Origin: Acidobacteriota bacterium
GTDB lineage: Bacteria > Acidobacteriota > UBA6911 > RPQK01 > JADFOI01
DNA length: 64,000 nt
Direction of reading: 5' to 3'
Assembly: GCA_963663035.1 (NCBI GenBank)
Contig: OY760074.1
Span: forward strand, 2,976,001 to 3,040,000
The notes beneath the pieces were generated by a model. It saw only the letters and a list, made by a program, of their open reading frames with translations. It ran no database searches and was not told the DNA's origin. Numbering within the stretch: position 1 is the first letter of the stretch; each line of letters starts with the position of its first letter. The position numbers were made by a program, and so were the translations under genes. Shown piece by piece: positions 18,229 through 64,000 of this stretch.

Positions 18229-18581
18229 GAGTCAAGACCACAGATCCCATCTGGTGGGCACTGTTTTCAGCAGGGGGAACGCTGGCCGCTTTTCTCCTAC
18301 CGGCTCACGTTCTCCTCACAGGAGTGGGAATCGCCTTTGGCTGGGTTTCCCCACAGATCCTCGCTTACCAGCGCCTCATCATCTTACTGGAGCATCCTCT
18401 TTTAAAGATTTACCTCTTTCTCCTGATCTCGCTGCCGCTTTTTCACTGGGCCCATCGCTTTCGATTCGTGTTGATGGACCTGGGACTCAGGAATCTGAAA
18501 ACTCCTGTTGCAGTCCTCTGTTACGGAGGGGCTGTGGCGGGGACAGTCCTGGCAGGTCTCTTGCTCTTCGTCTCCATCTAG
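18219..18581 (+). CDS. frdD: Fumarate reductase membrane subunit D
   Basis: DPIWWALFSAGG, LPLFHWAHR; E. coli FrdD-like. Confidence 0.87.
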   Translation: MAVRVKTTDPIWWALFSAGGTLAAFLLPAHVLLTGVGIAFGWVSPQILAYQRLIILLEHPLLKIYLFLLISLPLFHWAHRFRFVLMDLGLRNLKTPVAVLCYGGAVAGTVLAGLLLFVSI

Positions 18582-18712
18582 CCCGCTGCTCTCACACCAG
18601 GTCGTCGCGAAGCGGCGAAAGGACCGGCCTGACAAGGCGCTTGCGGGTCGCGGAACGCAGTCAGGTCAGATCATTGCGCCGATGCAGTAGAGCGGGCGTG
18701 AGAAGTGCGGGC
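18581..18712 (+). mobile_element. Structured repeat family A, copy A1 (132 bp, shortest form)
   Basis: Terminal IR gcccgc..ctcacacc / gtgagaagtgcgggc; core ctgacaagg..aacgcagtcag; first G completes the frdD TAG. Confidence 0.9.
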
Positions 18713-18719
18713 TCAGCCA

Positions 18720-23904: not shown

Positions 23905-24581
23905 TCTTGGGCGGTAGGACCCTGATTGACAATGATGTAGACCGCTCCCTGCTCCTTGGCCGAGCGAGGCACAGAGGCCGCCGGTTCCACTTCAAGAGTG
24001 GATCCAATGGCGAGAACCAGGTCGGCACGGGAGGCGGCCGAGAAGGCCTCCCTCAATTTTTCATGAGGCATGGCCTGTCCGAAGGAGATGGTAGCCGGTT
24101 TGAGGAAACCTTCACACCGACAAAGTGGAGGCTCACGGGTGCGTTCGAACTCCTCAAAAATGGAGCTCGGATCAGAGAGCTGGCCACAAGTCTGGCACTC
24201 AATCTTCCGATTGGTGCCGTGCAGCTCGATGACTCTGTCCTCAGAGTGTCCGGCCAGCTGGTGTAGTCCATCAATATTCTGTGTGACCAGTACTTCCAGA
24301 CGTCCCATCCCGTCTAACTCGAACAGGGCAAGGTGGGCTGGATTGGGTTCGGCGTCGCGAAACTGATGCCACCCCTCGAGTTTGTAGTCCCAGTGGCGGA
24401 TGCGTGCCTCGCGCGAGGTCATAAATTCATCGTAGTAGACGGGCCGCCATGTTTTCCACAGACCCTGAGGACCTCGGAAGTCGGGAATGCCCGACCCGGT
24501 TGAGATACCTGCCCCAGTAAAAATAAGGACTCGACGGGCATCACTGAGAAGGCTGGCTACTTGATTTGACTTAGCCCGCAC
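23817..24581 (-). CDS. cobB: NAD-dependent protein deacylase (Sir2 family)
   Basis: TGAGISTGSGIPDFRG, TQNIDGLH, ELHG, CxxC..CxC; GTG start lies inside repeat A2. Confidence 0.92.
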   Translation of the reverse strand: MRAKSNQVASLLSDARRVLIFTGAGISTGSGIPDFRGPQGLWKTWRPVYYDEFMTSREARIRHWDYKLEGWHQFRDAEPNPAHLALFELDGMGRLEVLVTQNIDGLHQLAGHSEDRVIELHGTNRKIECQTCGQLSDPSSIFEEFERTREPPLCRCEGFLKPATISFGQAMPHEKLREAFSAASRADLVLAIGSTLEVEPAASVPRSAKEQGAVYIIVNQGPTAQDQLADLRIEGDATTVLPAALRELLKLIRR

Positions 24582-24726
24582 TTCTCACACCCCCTCTACT
24601 GCAGCGGCGCAATGATCCGACCTGACTGCGTTGCGTTCGGTCGGCCTCCTCAACGTACTCAAGAGTACGTTTGCGGGGGTCGACCCTTCCGCCGCTTCGC
24701 GACGACCTGGTGTGAGAAATGCGGGC
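24574..24726 (-). mobile_element. Structured repeat family A, copy A2 (153 bp)
   Basis: IR gcccgcacttctcacacc / ggtgtgagaaatgcgggc; flanks TTA and TAA; carries the aacgtactcaagagtacgtt hairpin. Confidence 0.93.
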
Positions 24727-24734
24727 TAACATCG

Positions 24735-31158: not shown

Positions 31159-31163
31159 GATAA

Positions 31164-31315
31164 GTCCGCATTTCTCACACCCGCTCTACTGCATCGGCGC
31201 AATGATCCGCCCTGACTGCGTTGCGCGACCCGCACGGAGCGCGGGTACCCCTCGCGCGCCTTGTCAGGCCGGCCCTTTCGCCGCTTCGCAACGACCTGGT
31301 GTGAGAAATGCGGGC
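31164..31315 (-). mobile_element. Structured repeat family A, copy A3 (152 bp)
   Basis: IR gtccgcatttctcacacc / ggtgtgagaaatgcgggc; flanks TAA and TGA; 5 bp from the rimP -35. Confidence 0.93.
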
Positions 31316-31331
31316 TGAAGGCCAGACATCC

Positions 31332-39974: not shown

Positions 39975-40081
39975 GCCCCGTCAGAAGAGACAGGAACAAC
40001 CGAAAGCCCCCCCCACAGGGCCCGCCAATGTGCCCTTTGCCCTTTCATGCTCTCGTGCTAAGGTGAGAGTTCTGGCTAAAA

Positions 40082-40289
40082 GCCGGGATTATGCATAGGT
40101 TCTCGTAACGAAGTGGCGCAAGCGCCGCGATGACAAGGCGTGCGAGGGGTACCCGCCACGGGTCGGGCCCCGCAGGCGTACTCTTGCAGTACGCCGAGGA
40201 GCCCAAGGGGTACCCGCTTGCGGGTCGCACAACGCAGTCAGCGTGGATGATTGCGGCACTGCAGTAGAGAATTTATGCATACTCCCGGC
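40082..40289 (+). mobile_element. Structured repeat family A', copy 1 (208 bp)
   Basis: IR gccgggattatgcata / tatgcatactcccggc; core tgacaagg..caacgcagtca shared with family A; followed by TAA. Confidence 0.92.
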
Positions 40290-40317
40290 TAAGACATACC
40301 CCGAGTCAAGGGCACTC

Positions 40318-42561
40318 ATGCAGCCTTCGAAAAAAGACTATCTGAGCCATCTGAACGAACAGCAGAGATTTGCTGTCACCCAGACCGAAGGCCCAATGCT
40401 CATCCTGGCGGGAGCCGGGAGTGGAAAAACCCGAACGATCACTTACAAAATCGCCCATCTGATTGAGCAGGAAGTCTGCCGACCTGATCAAGTCCTGGCT
40501 GTGACCTTTACCAACAAAGCCGCTGAGGAGATGAGAAGTCGAGTCGAAGACTTACTGAAACATCTGGGTACTTCTCCTTTGGTTTGCACGTTTCACTCTT
40601 TCAGCGTTCGCGTGCTGCGGCGCTACGCTGACCTTATTGGGTATCGTACGGACTTCAGCATCTGTGACAGCGACGATCAGAAAAGGGTTATCAAGGCTGT
40701 CTACGAAGAACTCCACTTCACGGACAGCCAGCTCCCCATGAGAAAAGCTCGGGCGGCCATCAGTCGAGCCAAAAGCAATAACTGGGCCCCAGAAGAGTAT
40801 CTCGACAAGTCATCTGATCTCGCCCGCGAGGAACTTTCTCTCATCTACACCGCTTATGAGCGCTTTCTTTTGCGATCCAATGCCATGGATTTTGATGACC
40901 TGATCCTGCTAACCGTGCGCTTGTTGAAAAAGAACCATGAGGTTCGACAGAAATACGGTGAGTCCTACTCCCGTGTTCTGATTGACGAGTATCAGGATAC
41001 CAATCGTCCTCAGTATGACCTGATTAAGAATCTTACCGAGGTTCACCACAACATTACGGCTGTGGGAGACGATGATCAGTCCATCTATGGCTTTCGAGGC
41101 TCTGACATTGGAAACATTTTGCGCTTTGAAGCGGACTTCCCGGGAGCGACCATTGTCAAACTCGAGCAAAACTACCGCTCTAGTCAGAACATTCTGGATG
41201 CTGCAAGCAGCCTGGTGTCCAACAACCTGAATCGGAAGGGGAAAGTCCTCTGGACCGATCAACAGGCCGGTCAGCCAATCGAACTCTTCGCGGCGCCCGA
41301 CGCCAAGACTGAGGCAACTTTCGTTTCGAAGAAGATCCGCGAGCATCTCCAGAAGGGAGAAGAGGGGCTCGCCGTTTTGTATCGAACCAACTTCCAATCC
41401 CGACAATTTGAGGAAGCCTTTAGACGGTATGAGATTCCCTACAAGCTGATTGGAGGGACCAGTTTCTATCAGCGGAAAGAGGTCAAGGATGCACTGGCTT
41501 ACCTGCGAGTGGCCATGAATCCCAATGATAATGTCTCTTTCTTGAGGATTATGAATCGCCCCACACGAGGGATCGGCAAAGTGACAGAGGATCGCCTTCA
41601 TGGCAAGGCGCGAGATGAGCAGACAACCCTCTGGGAAGCCCTTCGAAAAGGCATAGAAGAGAACACTTTTCCCTCCCGAACACACCTGGTGTTGCAGCGT
41701 TTTTTCGAGCTCATATGCGAGTGTCAGGGCTTCCTGGAACTCCCTCTGTACCTATCCCTGGAAAAAATTCTGGAAGCCTGCGGCTATATCAAAGCCCTCA
41801 GGAGCGAGGATTCGGAAGAGGCTCATAATCGGACTCTGAATTTGGAAGAGTTGATCCTGCTGGCCAAAGAAAATGCAGAGCACGGATACACTTTTCAAGA
41901 GTTTCTCGACCACGCCGCGTTACGCTCCGAAGCGGACGATTATGACGAATCGGCAGCGGTCAGCCTCATGACCTTACACAATGCCAAAGGTCTTGAGTTT
42001 CCCATTGTTTTTCTAGTCGGTTGTGAAGAAGGACTCTTCCCACACAGCCGATCGGTGGCTGAGGATGATCTGGAGGAAGAGCGCCGCCTTTGTTATGTGG
42101 GGCTAACCCGGGCACAGAAGAAAATCTACCTCACCTATTCCCGTCTGCGTCGGTTTTTCGGCCGGGAGGGAGAAGAAATAAATCTTCCCAGCCGATTCTT
42201 ACAGGAGATTCCAGAACATCTCATCCGCGTCTCCTCCGGCCCTTTTCCGGTCGGTGAGTTTGTCCACCCCAGTGCCAGTCTTGGAGGATACCTGCAACGA
42301 CAAAAGCGTACCGGGACAGGTTTTGCAAAGACCCACGATTCAGTAGACAGCGTTCAAGGATTCTTGAACGAGCTCTCTCAGAAAAAAGGCAAATCAAAAA
42401 GCAATTTCATCTCCGGCGCGAGAATTGTCCACGAGAAGTTCGGTTACGGACAGATCCTTCGGGTCCAGGACACCGGCGACGACTTGAAGCTCACTGTACG
42501 ATTTCCGGGCCAGGGCATTAAACGGCTGCTACAGAGCTATGCCAAGTTGAAGCTGGTTTAG
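40318..42561 (+). CDS. pcrA: UvrD/PcrA DNA helicase
   Basis: LAGAGSGKT, TFTNKAA, IDEYQDTN, VGDDDQSIY, LEQNYRS, TLHNAKGLEF, EERRLCYV, C-terminal Tudor-like domain. Confidence 0.93.
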   Translation: MQPSKKDYLSHLNEQQRFAVTQTEGPMLILAGAGSGKTRTITYKIAHLIEQEVCRPDQVLAVTFTNKAAEEMRSRVEDLLKHLGTSPLVCTFHSFSVRVLRRYADLIGYRTDFSICDSDDQKRVIKAVYEELHFTDSQLPMRKARAAISRAKSNNWAPEEYLDKSSDLAREELSLIYTAYERFLLRSNAMDFDDLILLTVRLLKKNHEVRQKYGESYSRVLIDEYQDTNRPQYDLIKNLTEVHHNITAVGDDDQSIYGFRGSDIGNILRFEADFPGATIVKLEQNYRSSQNILDAASSLVSNNLNRKGKVLWTDQQAGQPIELFAAPDAKTEATFVSKKIREHLQKGEEGLAVLYRTNFQSRQFEEAFRRYEIPYKLIGGTSFYQRKEVKDALAYLRVAMNPNDNVSFLRIMNRPTRGIGKVTEDRLHGKARDEQTTLWEALRKGIEENTFPSRTHLVLQRFFELICECQGFLELPLYLSLEKILEACGYIKALRSEDSEEAHNRTLNLEELILLAKENAEHGYTFQEFLDHAALRSEADDYDESAAVSLMTLHNAKGLEFPIVFLVGCEEGLFPHSRSVAEDDLEEERRLCYVGLTRAQKKIYLTYSRLRRFFGREGEEINLPSRFLQEIPEHLIRVSSGPFPVGEFVHPSASLGGYLQRQKRTGTGFAKTHDSVDSVQGFLNELSQKKGKSKSNFISGARIVHEKFGYGQILRVQDTGDDLKLTVRFPGQGIKRLLQSYAKLKLV

Positions 42562-42832
42562 TGTCTCGTCCCATGTATACCCAGATGTTTGCTGATGGGG
42601 CTTGGGAGGGGAGATCAAGGAGCGAGGAGGAGGTGATGCCGGGACATCGACGACGACGAGCGACGCAGAGATCGCCCGCAACCCCCATCAGCCCGAAGGG
42701 TGGCGGCGGGACGGCATCGATTTCTTTGTCGCTCCTCCTCCACGATGTCACTGACATCGCGTCGTCGTCGCTTCGCGAACTCGACGCCGTCGCGTTCGCC
42801 ACAAACGTCATGGTATTCATGGGACGAGACAC
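42561..42832 (+). mobile_element. Structured repeat family B, copy B1 (272 bp)
   Basis: 21-bp IR gtgtctcgtcccatgtatacc / ggtattcatgggacgagacac; internal homology to B2-B4; begins on the pcrA TAG. Confidence 0.92.
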
Positions 42833-42836
42833 TGAA

Positions 42837-42860
42837 GCCCGCCTTATGCATAATGCGGGC
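42837..42860. repeat. 24-bp collapsed A/A'-type palindrome
   Basis: gcccgccttatgcataatgcgggc: A-type outer ends around the A' TTATGCATAA core. Confidence 0.75.
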
Positions 42861-42886
42861 TAGTACTGAGGTTATAAGGTTTTTCA

Positions 42887-44233
42887 GTGCAGGCACTCAA
42901 TAACTTTTTTTCAGTAGCTGTAGACTATGCCTGGGGCGCTCCCCTGCTCCTACTGTTATTAGGCGGCGGTTTCATCCTCACCATCTACTCCAGGTTCTTG
43001 CCCTTTGCCGGTGCCAAACACACCCTTGAAATTCTTCGGGGGAAGTTCGATCGGGAGGAGGATCCAGGTGACATTAGCCACTTCCAAGCCTTGAGCACCG
43101 CCCTCTCCGCCACCATTGGCATGGGAAACATAGGGGGAGTTGCCATTGCCATTACCCAAGGCGGTCCGGGAGCGGTTTTTTGGATGTGGATGGCAGCTCT
43201 TGTGGGGATGGCGACCAAGTTCTTCACTTGCACATTGGCCGTCATGTATCGAGGGAAAGATAGCCTGGGAGAAATCCAAGGCGGTCCCATGTACTACATC
43301 GAGCTGGGATTGGGCCAGAAATTCCGCTTCCTGGCCGTTTTCTTCAGCCTTTGTGGGACCATTGGATGTCTGGCCCTGTTTCAGGCCAATCAAGTGGCGG
43401 AGATCCTGACTGAGGCCTACGGAGTGGAAACCTGGATCACCGGCCTTGCCTTAAGTGTTCTGGTTGGTGTGGTCATTGTGGGTGGGCTGAAAAGAATCGC
43501 AAAGGTCGCCAGCCGTGTGGTTCCCACCATGTGTTTGCTGTACCTGGTGGTCTCTGTTTATGTGCTCGTAAGCCATTACCAGCTGATCCCTCAAGTCTTC
43601 TCTCAAATTCTTCACGATGCCTTCACCGGCTCAGCCGCCGCGGGAGGAGTAGCCGGTATTTCAATGATGACGGTCTTCCAGACGGGTATCAAGAGAGCCG
43701 CCTTCTCCAATGAAGCGGGTCTTGGGACAGCACCTATGGCCCATGGTGCAGCCAAAACCACCGAACCCGTCAGAGAAGGATTGGTGGCAATGATCGGTCC
43801 CTTCATCGACACCATCGGGATCTGTTCTTTGACTGCTTTCGTGATCTTGTCCAGCGGAAACTGGCAGGTCGGCGGAGTCAAGGGCGTTTCTCTCACGATT
43901 CAGGCCTTTGAGGCGGTTATGGGAGGCTTCGGGAAGGTGGTTCTGGTGGCCATTGTGCTGCTCTTTGGCATCTCCACGATGTTCGGCTACTCATACTATG
44001 GCAAGAAGTGTTTCAACTATCTCTTTGGCGCAGAAAATGGTCGAATCTATGAGTTCTTTTATCTAGCGATGCTTTTCGTAGGGGCTGTCTGGAGTGCAAG
44101 CCTGGTGGTCAACCTGATCGATACCGTCTTTGCGATGATGGCTCTGCCTAACATGCTGGCGACCTTACTTCTGGCTCCCAGGGTCATGGAAGCAACCAAA
44201 GTCTACCTCTCCCGCTATCGTCCCGCCTCTTGA
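42887..44233 (+). CDS. Alanine/glycine:cation symporter (AGCS family)
   Basis: ALSATIGMGNI, GGPGAVFWMW, GGPMYYI, FSNEAGLGTAP, PFIDT. Confidence 0.94.
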   Translation: MQALNNFFSVAVDYAWGAPLLLLLLGGGFILTIYSRFLPFAGAKHTLEILRGKFDREEDPGDISHFQALSTALSATIGMGNIGGVAIAITQGGPGAVFWMWMAALVGMATKFFTCTLAVMYRGKDSLGEIQGGPMYYIELGLGQKFRFLAVFFSLCGTIGCLALFQANQVAEILTEAYGVETWITGLALSVLVGVVIVGGLKRIAKVASRVVPTMCLLYLVVSVYVLVSHYQLIPQVFSQILHDAFTGSAAAGGVAGISMMTVFQTGIKRAAFSNEAGLGTAPMAHGAAKTTEPVREGLVAMIGPFIDTIGICSLTAFVILSSGNWQVGGVKGVSLTIQAFEAVMGGFGKVVLVAIVLLFGISTMFGYSYYGKKCFNYLFGAENGRIYEFFYLAMLFVGAVWSASLVVNLIDTVFAMMALPNMLATLLLAPRVMEATKVYLSRYRPAS

Positions 44234-44400
44234 GATTGATCGACCCAAGAGGGCTCTGCTCATGGTCTTGGGCAGTGAGCGTGTGATAAAATCGAAAGTT
44301 GAGGAACGCTTTTCACTCTGAAACGTAATTAAATCGAACACGATTGAGTGAAATGAAAGAAGAGGCGTCTGCCCCATATGAGACTAAGCTGGAGGTTTTC

Positions 44401-46050
44401 ATGGCCGAAGTAAAGAAGTTTCTGACATCCAAACAGGGAATCACTTTCCTGGCACTTTTCATCACTCTGCTGCTGGGAATCACCATTGGGACCCTTGTTT
44501 CCGATCGCGTGCTGAGTGCCCAAGAGAACGAGGCTCCGGTGGCGCTGTTAAAGATTCAAGGTGAAGGGTTGCCCTTGCTCTTAGATGAGACAGACTTTCT
44601 GGGGAAAGGATTTGCTCTGATCGCCAAGACCGTTGAGCCTGCCGTTGTCAACATCAGCACCACGGCGATTATCCGCACCAACACTCCGCAGCAAAGAGGG
44701 ACTCCTGAAGACCTTCGAGACTTTTTCGGAGAGGATTTCTGGGAGCGCTTTTTCGGACCCATGGCTCCTCAGGAGAGGAAGACAACCAGTCTGGGCTCAG
44801 GCGTGATCGTGGACAGCAGCGGATATGTCCTCACCAATTACCACGTAGTGGCTCCCTCTGTTACCCGTCAGGGTACGAGACGAATTGCTGACAAGATCGA
44901 AGTCAAGCTGTCCTCCGGCGAGACCTACCTGGCACGAATCGTCGGGGGAGATCCTGAGTCGGATCTGGGAGTTTTAAAGATCAATGCTCCTGACCCCTTA
45001 CCCTTTGCCAAGGTGGGTGACACCTCGAAGATGCAAGTCGGCGACTGGGTACTGGCCATTGGGAACCCATTCGGAGTCGGTCAGACCGTCACTTCAGGTA
45101 TCGTTTCGGCTACAGGACGGGTGATTCCCACCGCTACGATTTTTGGCGACTATATCCAAACCGACGCGGCCATTAATCCGGGAAACAGTGGTGGCCCGCT
45201 GGTGAATGTGCGCGGTGAGGTTATCGGAATCAACACCTTCATTCTCACCCGAAGCGGTGGCTCCCAGGGAGTGGGATTCTCGATTCCCTCCTCGGTCTTT
45301 ATCAATTCTTACAACCAGCTTGTGACCAAAGGAAAGATTGAGCGGGGCTGGCTCGGGGTCACCATGAACTCCTATCCGTTGTCCGAGGAGCTCAGTGAAT
45401 TCTTTGGTGTCGCCGGGAATGATCCCACGGGAATTCGAGACGGAGACGGAGTTCTCATAACCCAACTCATTGATGAAAAGGGCTCCCCTGCTGAGACCGG
45501 ACCCGCTTACCTGGCCGGCATGCGGGCCGAAGATGTGATTGTAAAGTTTGGGGACCGGGAGACCGAGATCACCTTTGATGTGCGTGTAGCAGTGGCTAAT
45601 ACTCCCCCAGGGGAAGTCGTTCCCGTGACCGTGGTTCGAAAAGGGGAAGTCCTGAATCTGACCGTGACACTGGCGGAAAGAACTCTTGACCAGCAGGAAC
45701 AAGAGGATACCGGACTTTCTTTCGAACAGCAAAGAGAGGAAGAACGAGACAAGGAAATCGGCCTGGAGTTCGAAACGCTGTCGGCTCAAGATGCGGAAAG
45801 ACTGAATATAGAAGACGAGAGAGGAGTGCTGATCCGTGACGTAGCTCCCGGGAGCTTGGCCGATGAAGCCGGGCTATCTCGTACTCAGGTGATTACCAAT
45901 GTCAATGGCATTCCCGTGAGTACTGCCCAACAGTTGTACGACCAAATCAATTCCATGGACTCCGGTGCCGGCGTTGTTCTTCGTGTGATTTGGCTGACCC
46001 CGCAAGATCGGCGACTCAATATCGGCTATGCTGCATTCACAAAGCCTTAG
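44401..46050 (+). CDS. HtrA/DegP-family serine protease with two PDZ domains
   Basis: LGSGVIV, TNYHVV, SDLG, QTDAAINPGNSGG; GGAGG before ATG 44401. Confidence 0.93.
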   Translation: MAEVKKFLTSKQGITFLALFITLLLGITIGTLVSDRVLSAQENEAPVALLKIQGEGLPLLLDETDFLGKGFALIAKTVEPAVVNISTTAIIRTNTPQQRGTPEDLRDFFGEDFWERFFGPMAPQERKTTSLGSGVIVDSSGYVLTNYHVVAPSVTRQGTRRIADKIEVKLSSGETYLARIVGGDPESDLGVLKINAPDPLPFAKVGDTSKMQVGDWVLAIGNPFGVGQTVTSGIVSATGRVIPTATIFGDYIQTDAAINPGNSGGPLVNVRGEVIGINTFILTRSGGSQGVGFSIPSSVFINSYNQLVTKGKIERGWLGVTMNSYPLSEELSEFFGVAGNDPTGIRDGDGVLITQLIDEKGSPAETGPAYLAGMRAEDVIVKFGDRETEITFDVRVAVANTPPGEVVPVTVVRKGEVLNLTVTLAERTLDQQEQEDTGLSFEQQREEERDKEIGLEFETLSAQDAERLNIEDERGVLIRDVAPGSLADEAGLSRTQVITNVNGIPVSTAQQLYDQINSMDSGAGVVLRVIWLTPQDRRLNIGYAAFTKP

Positions 46051-46317
46051 TACTCCCTTTCATAAATACGGTGACGTTTGCGGAAGGGGCTTGCGAGGCG
46101 AGATCGCGAAAAGAGGAGGAGGCGATGCAGGGCCATCGACGACGACGAGAGACAAAGAGATCGCCCGCAACCCCCTTCCGCCCAAAGGGTTGGGGCGGGA
46201 CGTGCCCATCTCTTTGTTTTCCTCCTCGCCGATGTCTCTGCATCGACTCGTCGTCGGGCCTCGAGCTGGGCCCGTCCCGCTCCCAACAAACGTTACCTTA
46301 TTTATGACGGTGAGTAC
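46050..46317 (+). mobile_element. Structured repeat family B, copy B2 (268 bp)
   Basis: About 31-bp imperfect IR gtactccctttcataaata / tatttatgacggtgagtac; TTA on both sides; begins on the htrA TAG. Confidence 0.93.
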
Positions 46318-46346
46318 TTAAGTACTCAGTGCCCAATGATGCACCT

Positions 46347-47834
46347 ATGGCCAAGGCCAAGGCATACAAAAACCTGATTGCCGGCGAATGGGTGAAATCC
46401 ACCTCCGGTCGCACCTTTGAAAATCGCAATCCTGCCGACCACCGTGAGCTCATTGGCTCCTTCCAGGACTCCACTGCGGATGACGTCGAGCAGGCAGTAG
46501 CTGCCGCCTGCCAAGCATACTCACCGTGGCGCCTGACTCCAGCGCCCAAAAGGGGGGAGATCCTCTTTCGGGTGGGGGAAATCCTTACCCGTCGCAAAGA
46601 AGAACTCGCATACGACATGACCCGAGAAATGGGAAAGGTTCTGCTGGAGACACGGGGAGACGTTCAGGAGGCCATCGACATGGCCTATTGGATGGCGGGT
46701 GAAGGGCGACGGATGTACGGTCACACGACTCCCTCAGAACTGCGGGATAAATTCAACATGAGTATGCGCATGCCGATCGGCGTCTGCGGAATCATCTCAC
46801 CCTGGAACTTTCCCATCGCCATCCCCAGCTGGAAGATCCTTCCTGCCCTGGTGTGTGGAAATACCTGCGTGTTCAAGCCTGCTTCCGATAGTCCGCTCAC
46901 TGCCGTACATTTCATGGAGGTCCTTGAGGAGGCAGGTCTACCGAAAGGGGTTGCCAATTTGGTCACGGGAACAGGAGCTCGGACTGGAAGTGCTCTGGTT
47001 GAACACAAGGACGTCAGGGTCGTTTCCTTCACTGGATCAACCGCTACGGGAAGAATCGTCGCACAAAAGTGTGCTCAGGACTTCAAGAAACATAACCTGG
47101 AGATGGGTGGGAAAAACGCCATCATGGTGATGGAGGATGCCAACCTGGAACTGGCAGTTGAGGGCGCCCTTTGGGGAGGCTTTGGTACCAGTGGACAGCG
47201 ATGCACAGCCTCTAGCCGGGTGATCGTTCACAAGAAGGTTTACAAAACCTTTGTTAATGAATTTATTGAGCACACCAAGAAATTGCGCCTTGGAAATGGG
47301 CTGGAACCCACGACTGAAATGGGTCCTGTAATCAACGAAAAGCAGAAGAAGTCGATTCTCCGGTGGATAGCTATAGGCAAGAAGGAAGGCGCGCGACTTC
47401 TCTGGGGTGGGAACCCTGTGGAGGAAGGAAGCTATCAACACGGCCATTTCATTGAACCCACTATCTTCGGAGATGTGGACCCGCAGATGCAGATCGCCCA
47501 GGAAGAGATCTTCGGTCCGGTAGTTTCTGTGATTCCCTGCTCCTCTTTTGAAGAGGCAATCGAATTCGGCAACAGTGTTCGATATGGCCTGTCCGCCGCG
47601 ATTTATACGCAGGATTTGAACAAAGCATTCGTAGCAATGAGGGAGATGGAGACGGGAATTTTCTACGTCAATGCTCCCACCATAGGGGCGGAAATACACC
47701 TGCCTTTTGGGGGAATCAAGGAGACCGGTAACGGTCACAGAGAAGCGGCAGAAGCAACTTTGGATGTGTTCTCCGAGTGGAAGGCAGTGTACCTGGATTT
47801 CAGTGGACATCTGCAACGAGCACAAATTGACTAG
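46347..47834 (+). CDS. NAD(P)-dependent aldehyde dehydrogenase
   Basis: PWNFP, FTGS, LEMGGKN, GQRCTA, EEIFGPV, PFGGIK. Confidence 0.94.
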
Positions 47835-52711: not shown

Positions 52712-52833
52712 GCCGGTGTTCAGGAAGGTCAAGATCGAGGCCGCACAAGCCCTTCGACCGCAGGCGTAGCCTAAGCTACATCGAGGATCGAAGGGCGCGG
52801 GAAAAAAAAAGATTGGCCTTCCTGGACACCCGC
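52712..52833 (+). mobile_element. Structured repeat family C, copy C1 (122 bp, uninterrupted)
   Basis: IR ggtgttcaggaaggtcaa / ttggccttcctggacacc; inner stems cccttcga/tcgaaggg and gtagc-cta-agctac. Confidence 0.88.
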
Positions 52834-53586: not shown

Positions 53587-54410
53587 GATACCTTCCATTG
53601 CTTCTCTTCCTCTTTCAACCTGCTCTGGTCTTCTCCCAGCAGCGACCCCTGGTGACGGAACGCGCGGAGACAGTCACACGGGGTCATATCCTTTTCGATA
53701 TCGGCCTCGAGTTCCTTCAGGATGCTGTTTTTGCTTTCTCAGGGCTGGAAGGGGATTTGACCAGAATCGGGGTGCTGGGGGCCCGCATCGGGGTGGCGGA
53801 TAACGTTGAACTTCAGGTTCTGGGAACCATCCAGAACACCCTAAACATCGAGAATCGCTTTCCGGCTCCCAACACCCCTCTCCTGAACTTCACGGGAAAC
53901 TCCACCAACGATGTGGGAGATTTTACCATGGCCACCAAAGTGCGCCTCACAGAAGAGGGGGAGAGGTGGCCGGCCATAGCGTCTCGGTTCGGCTTTAGCA
54001 TGCCCAATGCCTCCAACGAAAATGGGTTGGGTAATGATGAAATCGATGTCTTTTCCAGTCTTTTGTTTCAAAAGCACTTTGGAAAGCTTCAGGTTTTCAC
54101 GAATCTGGGCTTGGCCATCTTAGGAGACCCGGTTACCCCCGGAGCTCAAGACGACCTGTATACCTATGGCCTGGCAGGACTGTACCCGCTTGGTGACGGG
54201 ATCAATCTGGTGGTAGACGCTTATGGGCGGGTAGGAGCCGGAGGGATCGGGACCGAGGAGCAAACAAGGCTTCGCCTGGGGACCCAGATCAATGCGGCTG
54301 GACTGGTTTGGGATGTGGCCCTGGCCGTGGGTTTTCGAGACACAGATCCTTCCAGGGGACTCCTGCTAGGCGTGTCGAAGGACTTCAACTTCCCCCTGCT
54401 TGTGCGCTAG
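53583..54410 (+). CDS. Putative outer-membrane beta-barrel protein
   Basis: Signal peptide, RPLVTERAET, GDFTMATK, alternating beta-strand pattern. Confidence 0.65.
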   Translation: MRYLPLLLFLFQPALVFSQQRPLVTERAETVTRGHILFDIGLEFLQDAVFAFSGLEGDLTRIGVLGARIGVADNVELQVLGTIQNTLNIENRFPAPNTPLLNFTGNSTNDVGDFTMATKVRLTEEGERWPAIASRFGFSMPNASNENGLGNDEIDVFSSLLFQKHFGKLQVFTNLGLAILGDPVTPGAQDDLYTYGLAGLYPLGDGINLVVDAYGRVGAGGIGTEEQTRLRLGTQINAAGLVWDVALAVGFRDTDPSRGLLLGVSKDFNFPLLVR

Positions 54411-54806
54411 CGGGTGTTCAGGGAGGTCAGGATCGAGGCCGCACAAGCCCTTCGACCGCAGGCGTAGCCAAAGTACTCCCTTTCATCAATACGGCAACGT
54501 TTGCGGGTGGGGCTTGCGAGGCGAGGTCGCGAAGGGAGGAGAAGGCGATGTCAGGGACATCGACGACGACGAGAGCCAAAGAGATCGCCCGCAACCTCCA
54601 TTCGCCAAAAGGGTTGGGACGGGACGGGCCCATCTCTTTGTTGCTCCTCCTCGGCGATGTCAGGGACATCGACTCGTCGTCGCGCCTCGATCTGGGCTCC
54701 GTCGCGTTCCCAACAAACGTTATCGTATTGATGAAAGTGAGTACTAAGCTACGTCGAGGATCGAAGGGCGCGGAGAACGAAGAGCCTGGCCTTCCTGGAC
54801 ACCCGC
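54410..54806 (+). mobile_element. Structured repeat family C, copy C2, interrupted by B3
   Basis: 54410-54472 and 54745-54806 rejoin to match C1; 22-bp terminal stem; GCTA on both sides. Confidence 0.9.
54473..54744 (+). mobile_element. Structured repeat family B, copy B3 (272 bp), nested in C2
   Basis: IR gtactccctttcatcaatacg / cgtattgatgaaagtgagtac; flanks AAA and TAA. Confidence 0.93.
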
Positions 54807-54811
54807 GCTAA

Positions 54812-55019
54812 GCCCGCATTTCTCATACCAGTTCGTCACGAAGCGGCGGAAGGGACGGCCTGACAAGGCGCGCGAGGGGTTCCCGCTTGCGGGTCGACCC
54901 CCGCAAACGTACTCTTGAGTACGTTGAGGAGGCCGAGGGGTTCCCGCTTGCGGGTCGTGCAACGCAGTCAGGTCGGATCATTGCGCCGATGCAGTAGAAC
55001 GGGTGTGAGAAGTGCGGGC
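54812..55019 (+). mobile_element. Structured repeat family A, copy A4 (208 bp, fullest form)
   Basis: IR gcccgcatttctcatacc / ggtgtgagaagtgcgggc; two copies of gaggggttcccgcttgcgggtcg around the aacgtac..gtacgtt hairpin. Confidence 0.93.
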
Positions 55020-55020
55020 T

Positions 55021-57729
55021 TTAACTGCAACCTGAGGTACTGCCACAGACAGTGCAAATGTAGCAGTTGCCATTCCGCTGCATCAGATTCCCGCAAGTCA
55101 GGCAGGTGTGGGATTCTCTGGCACTATCCTGAATCAGCCGCTGGGCGGCACGGGTGGCCTCGGGCAAAGCAGCCTGGTCCGAGAAAGTCACCTGTACGCC
55201 GCCCTGGACACTACCATTCGGTTTCACGTTGTGGATTCCCAGGGCTTCCTGAACCTCAAGGCTGAGAAATTGGGTGGCCAGAAAACGGACCACATAGTCG
55301 GGAATTGAGGTGGCGAACGGAATTTGAGTATTGTCGGTAAATCCAGCAGGCTCGAAACTCATATGAGCAAAGATCCGCACGTAGTCCTCCAGTGGCACAC
55401 CACGCTGCAGGCCCATTGAGATGGCAACGGCCCAAGCCATGGTCATGCCCTGGAGAGTGGAGCCTTGTTTGGCAAAATTGAGGAAGATTTCACCCAACTG
55501 TTTGTCTTCCGGGTACATACCCATGGTCAGATAACCCTTGAAGCCCTTGATTCGAAACTCGTGCTGCAGGGCCGGGTGATCCTTGGGCATGTTGCGTTGC
55601 TGCGGTACGTTCACCGGTTGAAGTTTTTCCTTGTTAGAGAGCGGCTGTACCATCTTGCATCCATCGCGATAGATGGACACTGATTTCATCCCGTGTCTCC
55701 AGCCCTCAATGTAGGCCTCCATGATCTCTTCCACCGAGGCCTCGTTGGGGAGATTAATGGTCTTGGAAATAGCGCCCGACAGAAAGGGCTGAACGGCTCC
55801 GCACATCTTAATGTGTCCAAGATATTGAATGGAACGACTTCCCATGGCAGGCCGATCAGCACAGTCAAAAACGGCTACGTGCTCCTCTTTCAAGTGAGGG
55901 GCACCCTCGATCATCTCCTGCTTCTCGACATACTTCAGGATTTCGTCGATCTCTTCCTGCGGATAGCCCAGTCTCTTGACAGCTCGAGAAATCGTGTTGT
56001 TCACGATTTTCAGGTTTCCTCCACCCACCAGTTTCTTGACTTTAACCAGTGAAAAGTCGGGCTCCACACCCGTTGTATCACAGTCCATCATGAAGGCAAT
56101 GGTCCCGGTGGGAGCCAGGAGGGTGACCTGGGCATTTCGGTATCCATGCTCGGAACCCTCCACGATAGCCTGATCCCACGCCTCCATAGCGGCGTGCAGA
56201 AGCTCCATGGGAACCAAGGCAGAGTCGATTCCAGAGAGAGCTTCCCGATGCTTATGAATGACGCGCATGGTGGTAAGCCGATTTTTCTCAAAGCCAGCGA
56301 AAGCGCCCTTCTGCTCGGCGATCTCGGCACTGGTCAAATAGGCCTGACCGGTCATCAGAGCTGTAATCGCAGCAGAGAGATTCCGAGCTTGATCACTATC
56401 GTAGGGAAGGCCGGAAGCCATCAGCAGCGCACCCAGATTGGCAAATCCCAACCCCAAAGTCCGGTAGTCGTGGCTGATTCTCGTGATTTCCGGGGTGGGG
56501 TAGGAGGAGTTGTCAACAATGATCTCCTGCGCCAGGATCATGATTTGAACTGCTCGGCGGAAAGCCTGAATGTCGAATTGACCCTCCTCCTTCACGAACT
56601 TCATCAGGTTCAGCGAGGACAGGTTACAGGCTGAATTGTCCAGGAAGACGTATTCTGAGCAGGGATTGGAGGCGTTGATGGGGCCACTATTGGGACAGGT
56701 GTGCCAGTCATTCAGGGTCGTGTAGAACTGAAGACCTGGATCGCCACAAATCCAGGTTGCCTTTGCGATCCACTGCATCATCTCGCGGGCTTTGTAGGTA
56801 TCAACTACCTCACCACTTGTGACCTTACAGGTTTTCCATTCTTTTTCATTGACCACGGCCTCCATAAACTCGTTGGTCACGCTGACACTATTATTGGCAT
56901 TTTGAAACTGGACGCTCTGGTAGGCTTCTCCATCGATGGAGTCGTCGTATCCGAGCTGGATCAGTTTGTGAGCCTTTTCTTCCTCCCGAGCCTTACTCCA
57001 GATATATTCCTTAATATCCGGATGATCCGCGTTTAGAATGACCATCTTAGCGGCTCTTCGTGTGGCTCCGCCCGACTTGATGGCCCCGGCAAAACTGTCA
57101 TACCCTCTCATGAAAGAAACGGGTCCTGAAGCAAAGCCCCCCACGGCCAAGGGCTCCACTGAAGAACGGATATTCGACAGGTTCACACCGGAACCAGACC
57201 CTCCTTTGAAAATATGGGCCTCGGTTTTGGCCAGCTTCATGATGGAGCCCATATTGTCTTGGACGCTATTGATAAAGCAGGCCGAACACTGAGGATTCCT
57301 CTTGATACCCATGTTGAACTGTACCGGGCTATTGAAGGCGGCCATTTGATGCAGAAGTAAATAAGACAGCTCGTGAGTGAAGGTTTGAGCATCCTTAGTG
57401 GAGGCGAAGTAGTTCCCCTTCTTGCCCCAAACGGTCAGGGTGTCAACAATCCGCCCGATGAGCTGCTTGACACTGTGCTCCCGCTTGGGACTTCCGAGAT
57501 GACCACGGAAATATTTGCTGGCTACTATGTCCGTCGCCCGTTGGGTCCAAAATTGAGGGAATTCCAGGTCCTCTTGTCGAAAAGCGATCTTGCCAGTTTC
57601 AAAATCCTTGATTTCGGCGGTCCGAGTCTCCCACTTGACATCGTCAAAAGGGTGTCTTCCCTTTTGGCTAAAGTAGGGTTCGATGGTGAGACCAGTAGAC
57701 ACTTCCGCTTTCCCGACAGCCTTTTTCAT
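55021..57729 (-). CDS. nrdJ: Class II adenosylcobalamin-dependent ribonucleotide reductase
   Basis: FNSP, PQCSACFI, ASNPCSEY, APTGTI, GAISKTIN, TSCPD-like domain, C-terminal CxxC..CxxC. Confidence 0.95.
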   Translation of the reverse strand: MKKAVGKAEVSTGLTIEPYFSQKGRHPFDDVKWETRTAEIKDFETGKIAFRQEDLEFPQFWTQRATDIVASKYFRGHLGSPKREHSVKQLIGRIVDTLTVWGKKGNYFASTKDAQTFTHELSYLLLHQMAAFNSPVQFNMGIKRNPQCSACFINSVQDNMGSIMKLAKTEAHIFKGGSGSGVNLSNIRSSVEPLAVGGFASGPVSFMRGYDSFAGAIKSGGATRRAAKMVILNADHPDIKEYIWSKAREEEKAHKLIQLGYDDSIDGEAYQSVQFQNANNSVSVTNEFMEAVVNEKEWKTCKVTSGEVVDTYKAREMMQWIAKATWICGDPGLQFYTTLNDWHTCPNSGPINASNPCSEYVFLDNSACNLSSLNLMKFVKEEGQFDIQAFRRAVQIMILAQEIIVDNSSYPTPEITRISHDYRTLGLGFANLGALLMASGLPYDSDQARNLSAAITALMTGQAYLTSAEIAEQKGAFAGFEKNRLTTMRVIHKHREALSGIDSALVPMELLHAAMEAWDQAIVEGSEHGYRNAQVTLLAPTGTIAFMMDCDTTGVEPDFSLVKVKKLVGGGNLKIVNNTISRAVKRLGYPQEEIDEILKYVEKQEMIEGAPHLKEEHVAVFDCADRPAMGSRSIQYLGHIKMCGAVQPFLSGAISKTINLPNEASVEEIMEAYIEGWRHGMKSVSIYRDGCKMVQPLSNKEKLQPVNVPQQRNMPKDHPALQHEFRIKGFKGYLTMGMYPEDKQLGEIFLNFAKQGSTLQGMTMAWAVAISMGLQRGVPLEDYVRIFAHMSFEPAGFTDNTQIPFATSIPDYVVRFLATQFLSLEVQEALGIHNVKPNGSVQGGVQVTFSDQAALPEATRAAQRLIQDSARESHTCLTCGNLMQRNGNCYICTVCGSTSGCS

Positions 57730-57891: not shown

Positions 57892-57897
57892 TGTTAA

Positions 57898-58101
57898 GCC
57901 CGCACTTCTCACACCCGTTCTACTGCATCGTCGCAATGCCTCGACCTGACTGCGTTGCACGACCCGCACGCCAGTGCGGGTACCCCTCGCGCGCCAGTCG
58001 GGCCCGCAGGCTTTAGCCTGCGGGCCCGTGGGCTAAAGCCCACGGCTCTGTTTTCCGGCCCTTCCGCTGCTTCGCTACGACCTGGTGTGAGAAATGCGGG
58101 C
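57898..58101 (-). mobile_element. Structured repeat family A, copy A5 (204 bp) with REP-like insert
   Basis: Family A IRs; TAA on both sides; extra double hairpin at 58000-58045. Confidence 0.93.
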
Positions 58102-58386
58102 TAAGCGATCGACGAGTTCCTCTCTTGAGAGCCCTCGGATTGTGACAGTTTTATTGCGGGAATGCTGTCCTTGGATCAGGGAGAGATTTTTGGCAGGCAA
58201 CTCCAAAGAGCGGGCCAAGAAGCTCAGAAGTTCACGATTGGCACGGTCTTTCAGGGGAGGAGCAGCCAGGCGAACCTTCAAGGCGCCATTGTATGAACCG
58301 CTGATTTGGCTCTTCGCCGCTAGTGGCTGGACCCGCACTGGCAACAGAAGCATTCCCGATCTTTCGCTGATCTCTACCTCATCCAT
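58075..58386 (-). CDS. DUF167 (YggU-like) protein
   Basis: VRVQP, LKVRLAAPP..RAN, GQHSRNK; last codons lie within A5. Confidence 0.9.
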   Translation of the reverse strand: MDEVEISERSGMLLLPVRVQPLAAKSQISGSYNGALKVRLAAPPLKDRANRELLSFLARSLELPAKNLSLIQGQHSRNKTVTIRGLSREELVDRLARISHTRS

Positions 58387-60754: not shown

Positions 60755-61394
60755 GACCAATAAGACAACTGCCAACCTTTTGGCCCGTGACGTAGAGCTG
60801 CGGGTAGGTGATCGCTGCATCGTGAGCACCAAGCGGGGGGTTGAGCTGGGTCTTGTGATCAATGGACGCAAGGCTGAGAATCTTGATCTGGGTGAGTCCA
60901 AAGTGAATAAGGCTCTGAGGAAAGCGACTGAACGGGACCTTTATCTTCATGAGAAGAAGAAAGACCAAGAGGCTCACGCCCAGCAATTATGCAGGAAATT
61001 GATTAGAGCCCAGAAGCTCCCCATGAAGCTCTCCAAAACTGAGTATATCTTTGACGGCAGCCGGGTCATTTTCTATTTTACCTCAACGCGGCGTGTTGAT
61101 TTTCGAGAGCTGGTGAAAGGCTTGGCTCGTCGATTGCGGGCCCGAATCGAAATGCGCCAGATTGGTGCACGTGATGAGGCCAAGTTAATTGGTGGAATGG
61201 GGTGCTGCGGTCTAGGTGAAAACTGCTCTGCCAAGTTCTTGAAGGAATTAAGATCTGTCAGTGTCCGGGCAGCCAAGGAACAAGGTCTGACGGTGAACCC
61301 TGGCCGTTTATCCGGCATGTGTGGGCGACTGAAGTGCTGCCTGAATTATGAGGTCAATGCTACGGGCAGCTGTGGGAGTGGAGCCTGCGGTTAG
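60726..61394 (+). CDS. ricT: PSP1-domain / RicT (YaaT)-like protein
   Basis: RVDFRELVK, RIEMRQIGARDEA, SGMCGRLKCCLNYE; tmk-holB-ricT synteny. Confidence 0.88.
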   Translation: MLEIVTVKFETNKTTANLLARDVELRVGDRCIVSTKRGVELGLVINGRKAENLDLGESKVNKALRKATERDLYLHEKKKDQEAHAQQLCRKLIRAQKLPMKLSKTEYIFDGSRVIFYFTSTRRVDFRELVKGLARRLRARIEMRQIGARDEAKLIGGMGCCGLGENCSAKFLKELRSVSVRAAKEQGLTVNPGRLSGMCGRLKCCLNYEVNATGSCGSGACG

Positions 61395-61663
61395 TGCTCA
61401 CTTCCATAAATACGGTGATCTTTGTTGCGGCCGCTGCGCCCACGGATTCAAGGCGCTCCGACGAGTCGATACGGAAAATCGGCGAGGAGAAGCAACAAAG
61501 AAGACGGGGGTGCAGCGCCGCAACCCTTTGGGCGGAGGGGGGTTGTGGTCGATCTCTTCGTCGCTCGTCGTCGACGATGTCCGGACATCGCCTCCTTCTC
61601 GCTCCTCGACCTCGCCTCACAAGCCCCCTCCGCAAATGTCACCCTATTTATGGAAGGGAGCAC
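61394..61663 (-). mobile_element. Structured repeat family B, copy B4 (270 bp)
   Basis: IR gtgctcacttccataaata / tatttatggaagggagcac; fills the gap between two convergent TAG stops exactly. Confidence 0.92.
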
Positions 61664-62626: not shown

Positions 62627-63616
62627 ATGAAGCAGGCTGAACCCGTGAAGGGGTTTCCCGTCGTTTTCTCGACAGGGGATCCTCATGGGATCGGCCCAGA
62701 AGTCATCCTGAAAGCACTTCCCAGATTCCTCGCCTCGCAAACCATTCACCCTATTATTTTTGGAGATGCCAAGTACCTCAAAGGACTTCGGCAGGACCTG
62801 GGTTTGTCTCCAGATCTGGATCAGGTGGAGGTCATCACGGCTGCTCATTATGACTATCCTCCCGCCTGGGGGAAATTGGAGGAGAAAGCCGGCCACTTTG
62901 CCCTGCAGTGCTTGCGCCGCGCCGTCCAGTATTGCCGAGACAAAGGTCTCCCACTGCTGGTGACCGGACCAATCAACAAGAAAGCCACCCATCTTGCGGG
63001 ATCTGCCAATCCAGGTCAGACTGAGGCAGTGGCCTCCTTTTTCCCGGACAGTGAGCCGGTCATGACTTTTTTTTCAGATCGCCTGCGGGTTCTTCTCCTC
63101 ACCGTTCATATTCCTCTGCGGGAAGTCCCGTCAGCCCTCGACCCCGATGAGCTGGTGCGCAAGACCGAGGCTTTCCTTGAAGCCCTGCGCTCGATTGGAA
63201 TTCCTCAGCCTCGACTGGCTCTTTGCGGTCTGAACCCTCACGCTTCCGAGGAAGGTCTATTTGGTGAAGAGGAGCAAACCGTTCTCGAGCCTGCCGTTCA
63301 AATCTTGAACCAAAGGCACGGTTCCGACACAGTCACTGGCCCTTTTCCTGCCGACACGATTTTCCGTAGAGCCCTTGCAAACGAATTTGACGGTGTCATC
63401 GCCTTATACCACGACCAGGGGCTGATTCCTCTGAAACTGGTGGCATTCGAATCTGCAGTCAACGTGACCCTGGGTCTTCCACTGCTACGAACCTCCCCTG
63501 ATCATGGGACCGCCTTTGAAATCGCAGGACTTGGTGTCGCCGATGCCCAAAGCATGGGTGCGGCCATTGAATGGGGAATCCGGCTGGCTAAGCCTAGAAG
63601 CCGGGATTATGCATAG
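62627..63616 (+). CDS. pdxA: 4-hydroxythreonine-4-phosphate dehydrogenase
   Basis: GDPHGIGPE, TGPINK, GLNPHA, PADT, YHDQGL, RTSPDHGTAF. Confidence 0.93.
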   Translation: MKQAEPVKGFPVVFSTGDPHGIGPEVILKALPRFLASQTIHPIIFGDAKYLKGLRQDLGLSPDLDQVEVITAAHYDYPPAWGKLEEKAGHFALQCLRRAVQYCRDKGLPLLVTGPINKKATHLAGSANPGQTEAVASFFPDSEPVMTFFSDRLRVLLLTVHIPLREVPSALDPDELVRKTEAFLEALRSIGIPQPRLALCGLNPHASEEGLFGEEEQTVLEPAVQILNQRHGSDTVTGPFPADTIFRRALANEFDGVIALYHDQGLIPLKLVAFESAVNVTLGLPLLRTSPDHGTAFEIAGLGVADAQSMGAAIEWGIRLAKPRSRDYA

Positions 63617-63746
63617 GTTTTCGTGACGAAGTGCCGCTGGCGCCGCGATGACAAGGAGCCCAAGGGGTACCCGCTTGCGGGTCGCACAACGCAGTCAGCG
63701 TGGATGATTGCGGCACTGCAGTAGAAAACTTATGCATTATCCCGGC
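63600..63746 (+). mobile_element. Structured repeat family A', copy 2 (147 bp, internally deleted)
   Basis: IR gccgggattatgcata / tatgcattatcccggc; near-identical to 40082-40289 minus the central modules. Confidence 0.93.
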
Positions 63747-64000
63747 TAAGGACATGCTCATAGGCTCGTTGGCAAGCTTGCAGATTGAAGTGAACAAGAG
63801 CCTCGCTCGAAAACAAGAAGGCTTGCCCTAAAGCCCGGTAGAACTTCGCCAGATCGCCCACTTCGTAAAGAGGCACAAGGTACTCCGCCTTCAGGAGAAA
63901 GTAGTGGGAGAAAAGCGAGACAGTCAGCCGGGAGAATTTCGGGAAGGGGTGAATCTCGTACAGCCGCATCTGGGAGAGGCTCATCTGCTCGATGGCATGC
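63730..64000 (-). CDS. C-terminal part of a Fic-like protein with degenerate active-site loop
   Basis: HAIEQMSLSQMRLYEIHPFPKFSR resembles the Fic helix plus HPF motif but lacks GNGR; 5' end outside the window. Confidence 0.55.
   Translation of the reverse strand, partial: HAIEQMSLSQMRLYEIHPFPKFSRLTVSLFSHYFLLKAEYLVPLYEVGDLAKFYRALGQAFLFSSEALVHFNLQACQRAYEHVLSRDNA

Follow-up and report, generated by a model that had tools for sequence, protein, structure and literature searches.

In the textbook picture, MITEs (miniature transposable elements bounded by inverted repeats) combine conserved ends with variable bodies. The repeat family described here, termed B, reverses this pattern: its ends are variable and its body is conserved. 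It was found in a 64,000-nucleotide stretch of Acidobacteriota DNA, hereafter the window (G000:C1:2976001-3040000, where G000 denotes the genome, a single contig of 3,594,683 bases with 54.4% G+C). Window positions 42561-42832 (copy B1) are one of four copies in the window of a near-palindromic repeat of about 272 nt. B is short and non-coding, with terminal inverted repeats, target-site duplications, many copies, and both filled and empty sites; it is a family of non-autonomous DNA transposons of the MITE kind.

Several described families share features with B. Correia/NEMIS elements (Neisseria), ERIC, and RUP (Streptococcus pneumoniae) are likewise short, non-coding and intergenic, with terminal inverted repeats; they also duplicate TA at the target, form a long hairpin, and come in related subtypes that include internally deleted ones (PMC2229807, in excerpt). 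B differs from these in being longer (272 nt) and G+C-rich, in residing in Acidobacteriota, and in combining three end types with one body, duplications of two and three bases, and ends that change faster than the body. MITEs of the RUP/IS630-Spn1 type (PMC2229807, in excerpt) also resemble B in that one of its end types, T2, duplicates TA in 33 of its 59 copies, in words such as CTAG, CTAA and TTAG; unlike in those elements, the ends match IS630-type ends at no more than 14 of 22 positions, no DDE_3 domain occurs in genomes G000 to G005, and the other end types mostly duplicate three bases. REPINs, too, are hairpins of two inverted arms (Bertels and Rainey 2011, PMC3116915, in excerpt). Their conserved arms are invariant 16-mers, whereas the arms of B are its variable part; B moreover has target duplications, and the RAYT-like gene of its host neither travels with B nor carries B ends. 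The bcr1 repeats of the Bacillus cereus group are mobile, are bordered by direct repeats and are reported to undergo compensatory pair changes (summarised in PMC3184786, in excerpt); there, compensation is described for an RNA-level structure of a transcribed repeat, while B shows neither strand nor wobble bias. Integron attC sites stand at cassette ends in arrays next to an integrase gene; B copies are dispersed and insert singly, with duplications, and no search for an integrase was run. Among the papers listed by literature searches on compensatory changes in bacterial MITE ends, none has a title or abstract opening that describes fast paired end turnover on a constant body, which is no proof of absence. 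In summary, B adds a new family to an established kind of MITE, and its ends evolve in concert at unusual speed; this is unusual, but has precedent.

A profile built from the four window copies (B1-B4) gave 111 matches in G000, representing 53 loci: 39 full-length copies of 236-274 nt and 14 partial ones, five of which are internally deleted forms of about 162 nt. For alignment, 179 distinct full-length copies were used, namely the 39 from G000 and 140 from 12 other genomes; the latter are the best-scoring copies per genome, with one genome per species and one duplicate removed. Five end types can be distinguished: T2 (59 copies), T1 (55), T5 (30), T4 (21) and T3 (14). At the level of consensus sequences, T2, T3 and T5 have a body in common (97-99% identity), yet their ends are only 81-92% identical (ends/body: T2-T3 0.81/0.99; T2-T5 0.85/0.97; T3-T5 0.92/0.98). 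Between T1 and T2, the corresponding values are 0.63 and 0.80. The element changes fastest at its ends, and a preliminary description of the locus, based on the four window copies, was right to contrast them with the usually invariant ends of MITEs. Relative to the consensus of their group, single copies have diverged by 6.3% in the ends and by 4.3% in the body; this similar decay indicates that the body is not under much stronger constraint in place. It was in the founding lineages that the ends changed rapidly, in every case on both arms.

The same description held that pairing in the terminal stems is conserved more than sequence. All the strings it quoted are present in B1-B4: position 3 is G-C or A-T, with both arms changing together; B3 has catCaata / tattGatg where B2 has catAaata / tattTatg; and C stands opposite T at pair 7 in B2, B3 and B4. 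The general claim holds in a wider set of 71 copies, hand-picked as roughly every second of 144 available references. Across the 31 terminal pairs, 94.4% of cells are paired, against 84.3% in shuffles (none of 500 reached the observed value) and 29-47% with the partner displaced by 1-3 columns. Both sides change in 21 of the 31 pairs (271 cells, versus 93±11 in shuffles). Beyond position 31 the arms are unmatched, with positions 32 and 33 unpaired in 178 and 174 of the 179 copies, respectively. Further inside the long hairpin, differences between subfamilies are mostly one-sided, for example at 33/247 (TA 20, GA 19) and 74/207 (GG 20, GC 18).

Parsimony on a whole-element tree of all 179 copies, a conservative choice, gives 39 cases in which both arms change on the same branch to a complementary state, 25 on terminal and 14 on internal branches. 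With the partner shifted by 1-3 positions, 1-4 such cases are found overall and 1-3 on terminal branches. Single changes number 428, comprising 313 that break a pair, 98 that restore one and 17 that leave it unpaired; paired changes thus amount to about one for every ten single ones. A tree built from the body alone yields 91 paired changes (control 3-12), a figure that is inflated since three end types share one body. Double changes in the stems, which the preliminary description took as its point of departure, are seen on a phylogeny. Most of the covariation lies between end types and is subfamily structure.

Within end types, an excess of paired changes is also observed. Eight groups of one end type each were analysed (174 of the 179 copies, the five in groups smaller than five being dropped); 86 cells have both arms shifted to the same base, compared with 31.7±4.8, and at most 48, in 1000 permutations of right arms inside groups. 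These cells correspond to 37 distinct paired variants, 24 of which are single-copy and 13 common to 2-16 copies. Own arms also form slightly more terminal pairs than arms taken across copies (27.55 vs 27.39; 100 vs 70 copies; p = 0.0185, the copies not being independent), with no such advantage in the interior (47.69 vs 47.83, p = 0.29). A version of this comparison with neighbours chosen by body was set aside as confounded, T2, T3 and T5 having one body. By three controls, the shallow, within-type excess is real. One protein binding both ends does not explain it; the candidates are arm-to-arm copying and selection, in the course of transposition, for ends that match.

The mobility of B is apparent from empty and filled sites. 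Of 18 B loci of the congeneric G005, with flanks 71-85% identical to G000, ten have flanks that adjoin in G000 without B (12-171 nt between them), one is filled at exactly the same site, and seven could be assigned to neither class. An empty TTAA corresponds to TTA[B]TAA when filled, and an empty CTAG to TTA[B]TAG. Among the 179 copies, 46 are flanked by three identical bases, 52 by TA on both sides (xTA on the left, TAx on the right), and 81 by neither. In the same order of categories, the counts are 1 (TTA/TAA), 33 and 25 for T2; 14 (TTA/TAA), 2 and 14 for T5; 22 (20 TTA/TAA, 2 other), 13 and 20 for T1; 6 (TTA/TAA), 4 and 11 for T4; and 3 (TTA/TAA), 0 and 11 for T3. Pooled, T1, T3, T4 and T5 have TTA/TAA in 43 of 120 copies and TA in 19 of 120, as against 1 and 33 of 59 for T2. 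Such a difference in the length duplicated suggests another transposase or another geometry of cutting. B inserts at TA-containing words, often stop codons or another palindromic repeat, with two or three bases being duplicated.

B1 itself adjoins the stop codon of the open reading frame (ORF) 40243-42561, the TAG being composed of TA and the first G of B1. Its site (window 42556-42565, just past the stop codon; orthologous sites L245-L249) is an insertion hot spot, with three different end types or remnants across six congeneric species: a T5-type copy lies five bases further on in G003, G005 and G001, a lone T2-type arm is found in G002, and a lone T1-like arm in G004. The copies in G003, G005 and G001 were rejected as orthologues, each being as close or closer to copies elsewhere (up to 95-96% identity with other loci for G005 and G001, compared with 91% between G003 and G005 at the site). 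At a second site, the same TAA is occupied in G000 by a copy of type T1 and in G005 by one of type T5. More widely, matches to B1 occur in 26 of 41 related genomes and in 12 of the 16 families of the order (G017 counted). Full-length identity of T1-type copies is 84-90% in G029 and G035, two genomes from other families, whereas coding DNA flanking B is only 75-85% identical among congeneric species; B has therefore spread, or been active, after its hosts diverged.

What drives this turnover? The explanation we lean towards, with somewhat more confidence than doubt, is subfamily turnover in which both ends are copies of one protein-binding site, together with a smaller share of arm copying. The ends evolve in concert, lineages with the same change on both ends founding the new subfamilies T1-T5, and end turnover is much faster than that of the body as subfamilies arise. 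The main cause would be that both ends are copies of a single protein-binding site; the end types may follow different transposases (TA versus TTA/TAA duplication), and one arm may, to a lesser extent, be copied onto the other inside a copy. The evidence suggests that the deep covariation is best read as reflecting subfamilies linked to different, predicted transposases, because duplication lengths differ and because neither neutral compensation nor arm copying would produce end turnover of this speed.

A number of observations weigh against this explanation. Each of the 24 single-copy paired variants cannot have its own transposase, and the split in duplication length is not clean, with 13 TA-type and 22 three-base cases in T1. 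In G029, positions 11, 22 and 24, which are linked and asymmetric in the common form, have jointly become symmetric in other copies, and in either direction: two copies have the left-arm type on both arms, three have the right-arm type on both arms, and a further six of the right-arm type carry a G on both arms at position 10 as well. In G000, no gene is enclosed by a pair of B ends. No transposase element with B-type ends was found among the sampled IS630-type elements of G029, G035, G026, G028, G036, G021 and G008, or among the ISAzo13-type elements of G035, and G000 to G005 yielded no match to IS630, IS427-type, Harbinger-type or ISAzo13-type transposases. Finally, the left and right ends of real IS630-type elements in relatives are imperfect, so that one shared transposase alone does not demand 94% complementarity.

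The possibility that each end type is a subfamily with its own transposase, which the preliminary description named as refuting its reading, is suggested by the differing duplications of the end types, but no autonomous insertion sequence (IS) with matching ends emerged from the material searched. This comprised the resident ISs of G000 (IS3-like, about 46 copies; IS1380-like, 30; IS256-like, about 21; plus IS481-, IS6-, IS5- and IS110-like), none of which has B-type ends, and a sample of IS630-, ISAzo13- and IS1380-type elements from part of the related genomes. As no IS with matching ends was found, B is an orphan. Most bacterial MITE families are orphans in this sense, no cognate transposase being known for them (PMC2229807, in excerpt).

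Several candidate drivers were considered individually. IS630-type transposases (PF13358, DDE_3) have no match in G000 to G005, are present in 14 of the 26 genomes with B and 10 of the 15 without, and are frequent in G029, G035, G026 and G028. The IS630-type elements of relatives begin with GTRY right after TA, as B does; they are doubtful as drivers, their ends being only loosely similar to those of B, with the best agreement being 14 of 22 positions by manual count (an element of G035). IS427-type transposases (PF13586) occur among B-bearing genomes only in G018, and Harbinger-type ones (PF13359) are absent from B-bearing genomes except G017. ISAzo13-type transposases (PF07592) were found in G035, G008, G011, G018 and G040; the elements of G035 duplicate TAA/TTA, and their ends (GGGCTGGCGC...) are unlike B. 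The resident IS1380-like element (L251, G000:C1:56900-58760) has in its right end nine bases, TTCATAAAT, in common with T1/T3 ends of B, at positions 10-18 from the tip and in the same register, and IS1380-like elements are present in 14 of the 26 genomes with B and 4 of the 15 without. Relatives of the resident element in G035 and G026 have no TTCATAA within their loci, and the single TTCATAA match in G003 lies about 1.4 kb from the IS1380-like gene; the resident element was dropped as a general driver. In G000 the RAYT-like gene lacks flanking B ends; it was rejected too, as it does not co-occur with B and no homologue of it was found in G029, G035, G026, G021 and G024, which have 8 to 53 B matches. 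G000 contains two single-copy Y1 (IS200/RAYT-like) genes, at G000:C1:346291-346776 (minus strand) and 2324680-2325351 (plus strand), the second of which looks REP-associated.

Solo B ends in G000 and G035 were considered as possible IS ends and proved instead to be remnants beside ordinary genes. About 15 solo B arms occur in G000, each next to ordinary genes, and mini-hairpins made only of two 14-nt B tips and a short loop are found at G000:C1:509277-509311 and in the 452741 region. Both mini-hairpins and solo arms are deletion remnants of palindromic B copies.

Arm-to-arm templated copying has also been considered as the main cause of the paired changes, and in that role it is doubtful. The element, single-stranded at a replication fork, would anneal to itself, and a change in one arm would be erased or copied to the other, through template switching at the quasi-palindrome or mismatch correction in the hairpin; complementarity would then arise without selection. 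Both processes are known from Escherichia coli. The preliminary description offered arm-to-arm conversion as one of two causes, and it does fit the within-type excess, the 25 private paired changes on terminal branches, the singleton variants and the linked symmetrisation in G029, where one arm's haplotype extends over three linked positions on both arms. It is also consistent with copy c1324560m, in which the position-7 mismatch is resolved and a paired change gained at position 12 in one stretch, and with the restriction of the effect to sequence in which complementarity already reaches about 94%, as expected if copying depends on annealing. Other observations speak against it as the main cause. 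Copying does not raise the substitution rate, and so cannot account for a divergence of 8-19% in the ends beside 1-3% in the body. Of 73 T1/T4 copies, 43, from four genome groups, have kept C opposite T at pair 7, beside positions with paired changes; the mismatch is resolved to C-G in 26 copies, mostly from G029, and to A-T in 2. Asymmetric haplotypes have been amplified, with T/C at position 4 in 24 copies and T/C at position 26 in 35, and the within-type advantage of own arms mentioned above is small. A slightly more tentative suggestion still is that the ends are kept identical by intra-element copying, one mutation being installed at both ends at once when the element folds. If so, B could rapidly re-tune both ends, switch transposase, and go from three to two duplicated bases with its body unchanged.

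Selection on a folded single strand, the other cause put forward at the outset, is improbable. Here, the hairpin would act or move as RNA or as shape-recognised single-stranded DNA, as in REPIN/RAYT or attC/integron integrase systems. B1 as single-stranded DNA folds end to end (−74.6 kcal/mol, whereas 200 shuffles give −51.1±3.9; z = −6.0), and RNA parameters give −132 to −151 kcal/mol for B. In addition, compensatory hairpin changes have been reported for REPINs (PMC3116915) and bcr1 (summarised in PMC3184786; both in excerpt). Of the 39 copies in G000, 16 are located between genes that converge, 3 between divergent and 20 between co-directional ones. Against this, interior pairs differ one-sidedly and show no own-versus-cross effect; pair-breaking changes lead to a wobble on the plus strand in 100 cases, to a wobble on the minus strand in 96, and to a transversion mismatch in 117; and B orientation in co-directional gene pairs is the same in 13 and opposite in 7. 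A search of Rfam with E values of up to 1 gave no match for the B copies between window positions 40000 and 64000, and the RAYT-like gene is, as noted, without flanking B ends in G000 and yielded no homologue in five B-bearing genomes. Fixed-length target duplications, which B has, are not known as a feature of single-strand transposition systems. Neutral compensatory evolution would, furthermore, be expected to be slower than that of the body, not faster. Given the lack of interior compensation and of wobble, strand or orientation bias, a folded functional strand is not supported.

Least likely by our estimate, and very much so, is that there are ordinary subfamilies only, the private paired changes being undersampled small subfamilies or tree-error artefacts: sampling was of best-scoring copies with one genome per species, 13 of the 37 within-type variants are common to several copies, L027 and L032 share one variant that is counted on two terminal branches, and the own-versus-cross gap (3.27 vs 4.36 mismatches) shrank with neighbours of the same end type, but small subfamilies still need both arms changed, and controls on the same tree and sample give 1-4 and 31.7±4.8 against the observed 39 and 86. 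Overall, the interpretation given in the preliminary description is partly supported.

Copies of B can be oriented unambiguously, with scores of 207-292 bits on one strand and 67-128 on the other; this clear difference makes B a quasi-palindrome and no true palindrome. The arms of B3 (54472-54590 and 54627-54745) are 71% complementary. A conserved ORF was considered and ruled out: one-base indels right after the sole GGAGG-preceded ATG in B shift the frame between end types, so that no conserved protein is encoded; the ORFs were given no protein-family search. The positions of B and of other features of the window are collected in Table 1.

Table 1. Copies of B, repeat C and further repeats in the window (window coordinates).
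Feature	Position	Strand	Remarks
B1	42561-42832	+	full copy, end type T2 (GTGTCTCGTCCCATG...); ends gtgtctcgtcccatg / catgggacgagacac
B1 left terminal inverted repeat, 31 nt	42561-42591	+	
B1 right terminal inverted repeat, 31 nt	42802-42832	+	complementary to 42561-42591
B2	46050-46317	+	full copy, end type T1; TTA / TTA flanks; pair 7 is C opposite T
B3	54473-54744	+	full copy with T1 ends; position 15 privately changed on both arms (C / G); nested in repeat C
Ends of B2 and B3			gtactccctttcat / ..gtgagtac
B4	61394-61663	-	full copy, end type T4; pair 7 is C opposite T; minus-strand ends gtgctcccttccat / atggaagtgagcac
Unoccupied target GTAGCCTAAGCTAC	52766-52779	+	in intact repeat C (52712-52833); filled form GTAGCCTAA[B]TAAGCTAC, TAA duplicated
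Repeat C, left half	54410-54472	+	split by B3
Repeat C, right half	54745-54806	+	split by B3
Second MITE-like, hairpin-shaped family	18579-18719, 24567-24728, 31161-31326, 40071-40296, 54806-55023, 57895-58107, 63594-63750		ends AGCCCGCATTTCTCACACC...
Palindrome, 26 nt, perfect-looking	42833-42863		AGCCCGCCTTATGCATAATGCGGGCT, then TAG; directly right of B1; resembles a collapsed copy of the second family
Tandem 18-nt units, six to seven	10367-10493		GACGCTGAAGTGGCCACC-like; probably a coding hexapeptide repeat
Direct repeat, 121 nt	15631-15751 and 15778-15898		99% identical, 147 nt spacing

Repeat C, with its central palindrome, is a preferred landing site of B: its TAA is occupied by no fewer than eight copies of B, which represent two end types. 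Further copies of repeat C in G000 are located at 399750, 480196, 497962, 501777, 642641, 1592426 and 3277150. The B copies at 480196, 497962 and 501777 have identical mutated flanks in common, indicating that the composite of repeat C and B has itself been duplicated. Twenty-four listed public runs contain part of the window, some of them 90-94% of the sampled words of window 42000-47000; the contigs of the four examined stop at repeats, and contig joints that skip B3 can stem from other copies of repeat C. One copy of the second hairpin-shaped family lies 62 bases from B3. In G029, several IS630-type copies are found within a few hundred bases of B copies, and at L082 (G029:C4:2896273-2899728) a B copy, a partial B copy and then the IS are immediate neighbours. 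Mobile elements accumulate at shared TA-rich sites.

In practical terms, annotators and repeat finders that are keyed on conserved ends would split B or miss it. T3, T5 and T2 form a natural series in which the ends change pairwise, step by step, on a body of 97-99% identity, accompanied by a change in target duplication. With this series, two questions become testable: how non-autonomous elements change their transposase allegiance, and whether templated repair homogenises the arms of palindromic mobile DNA.

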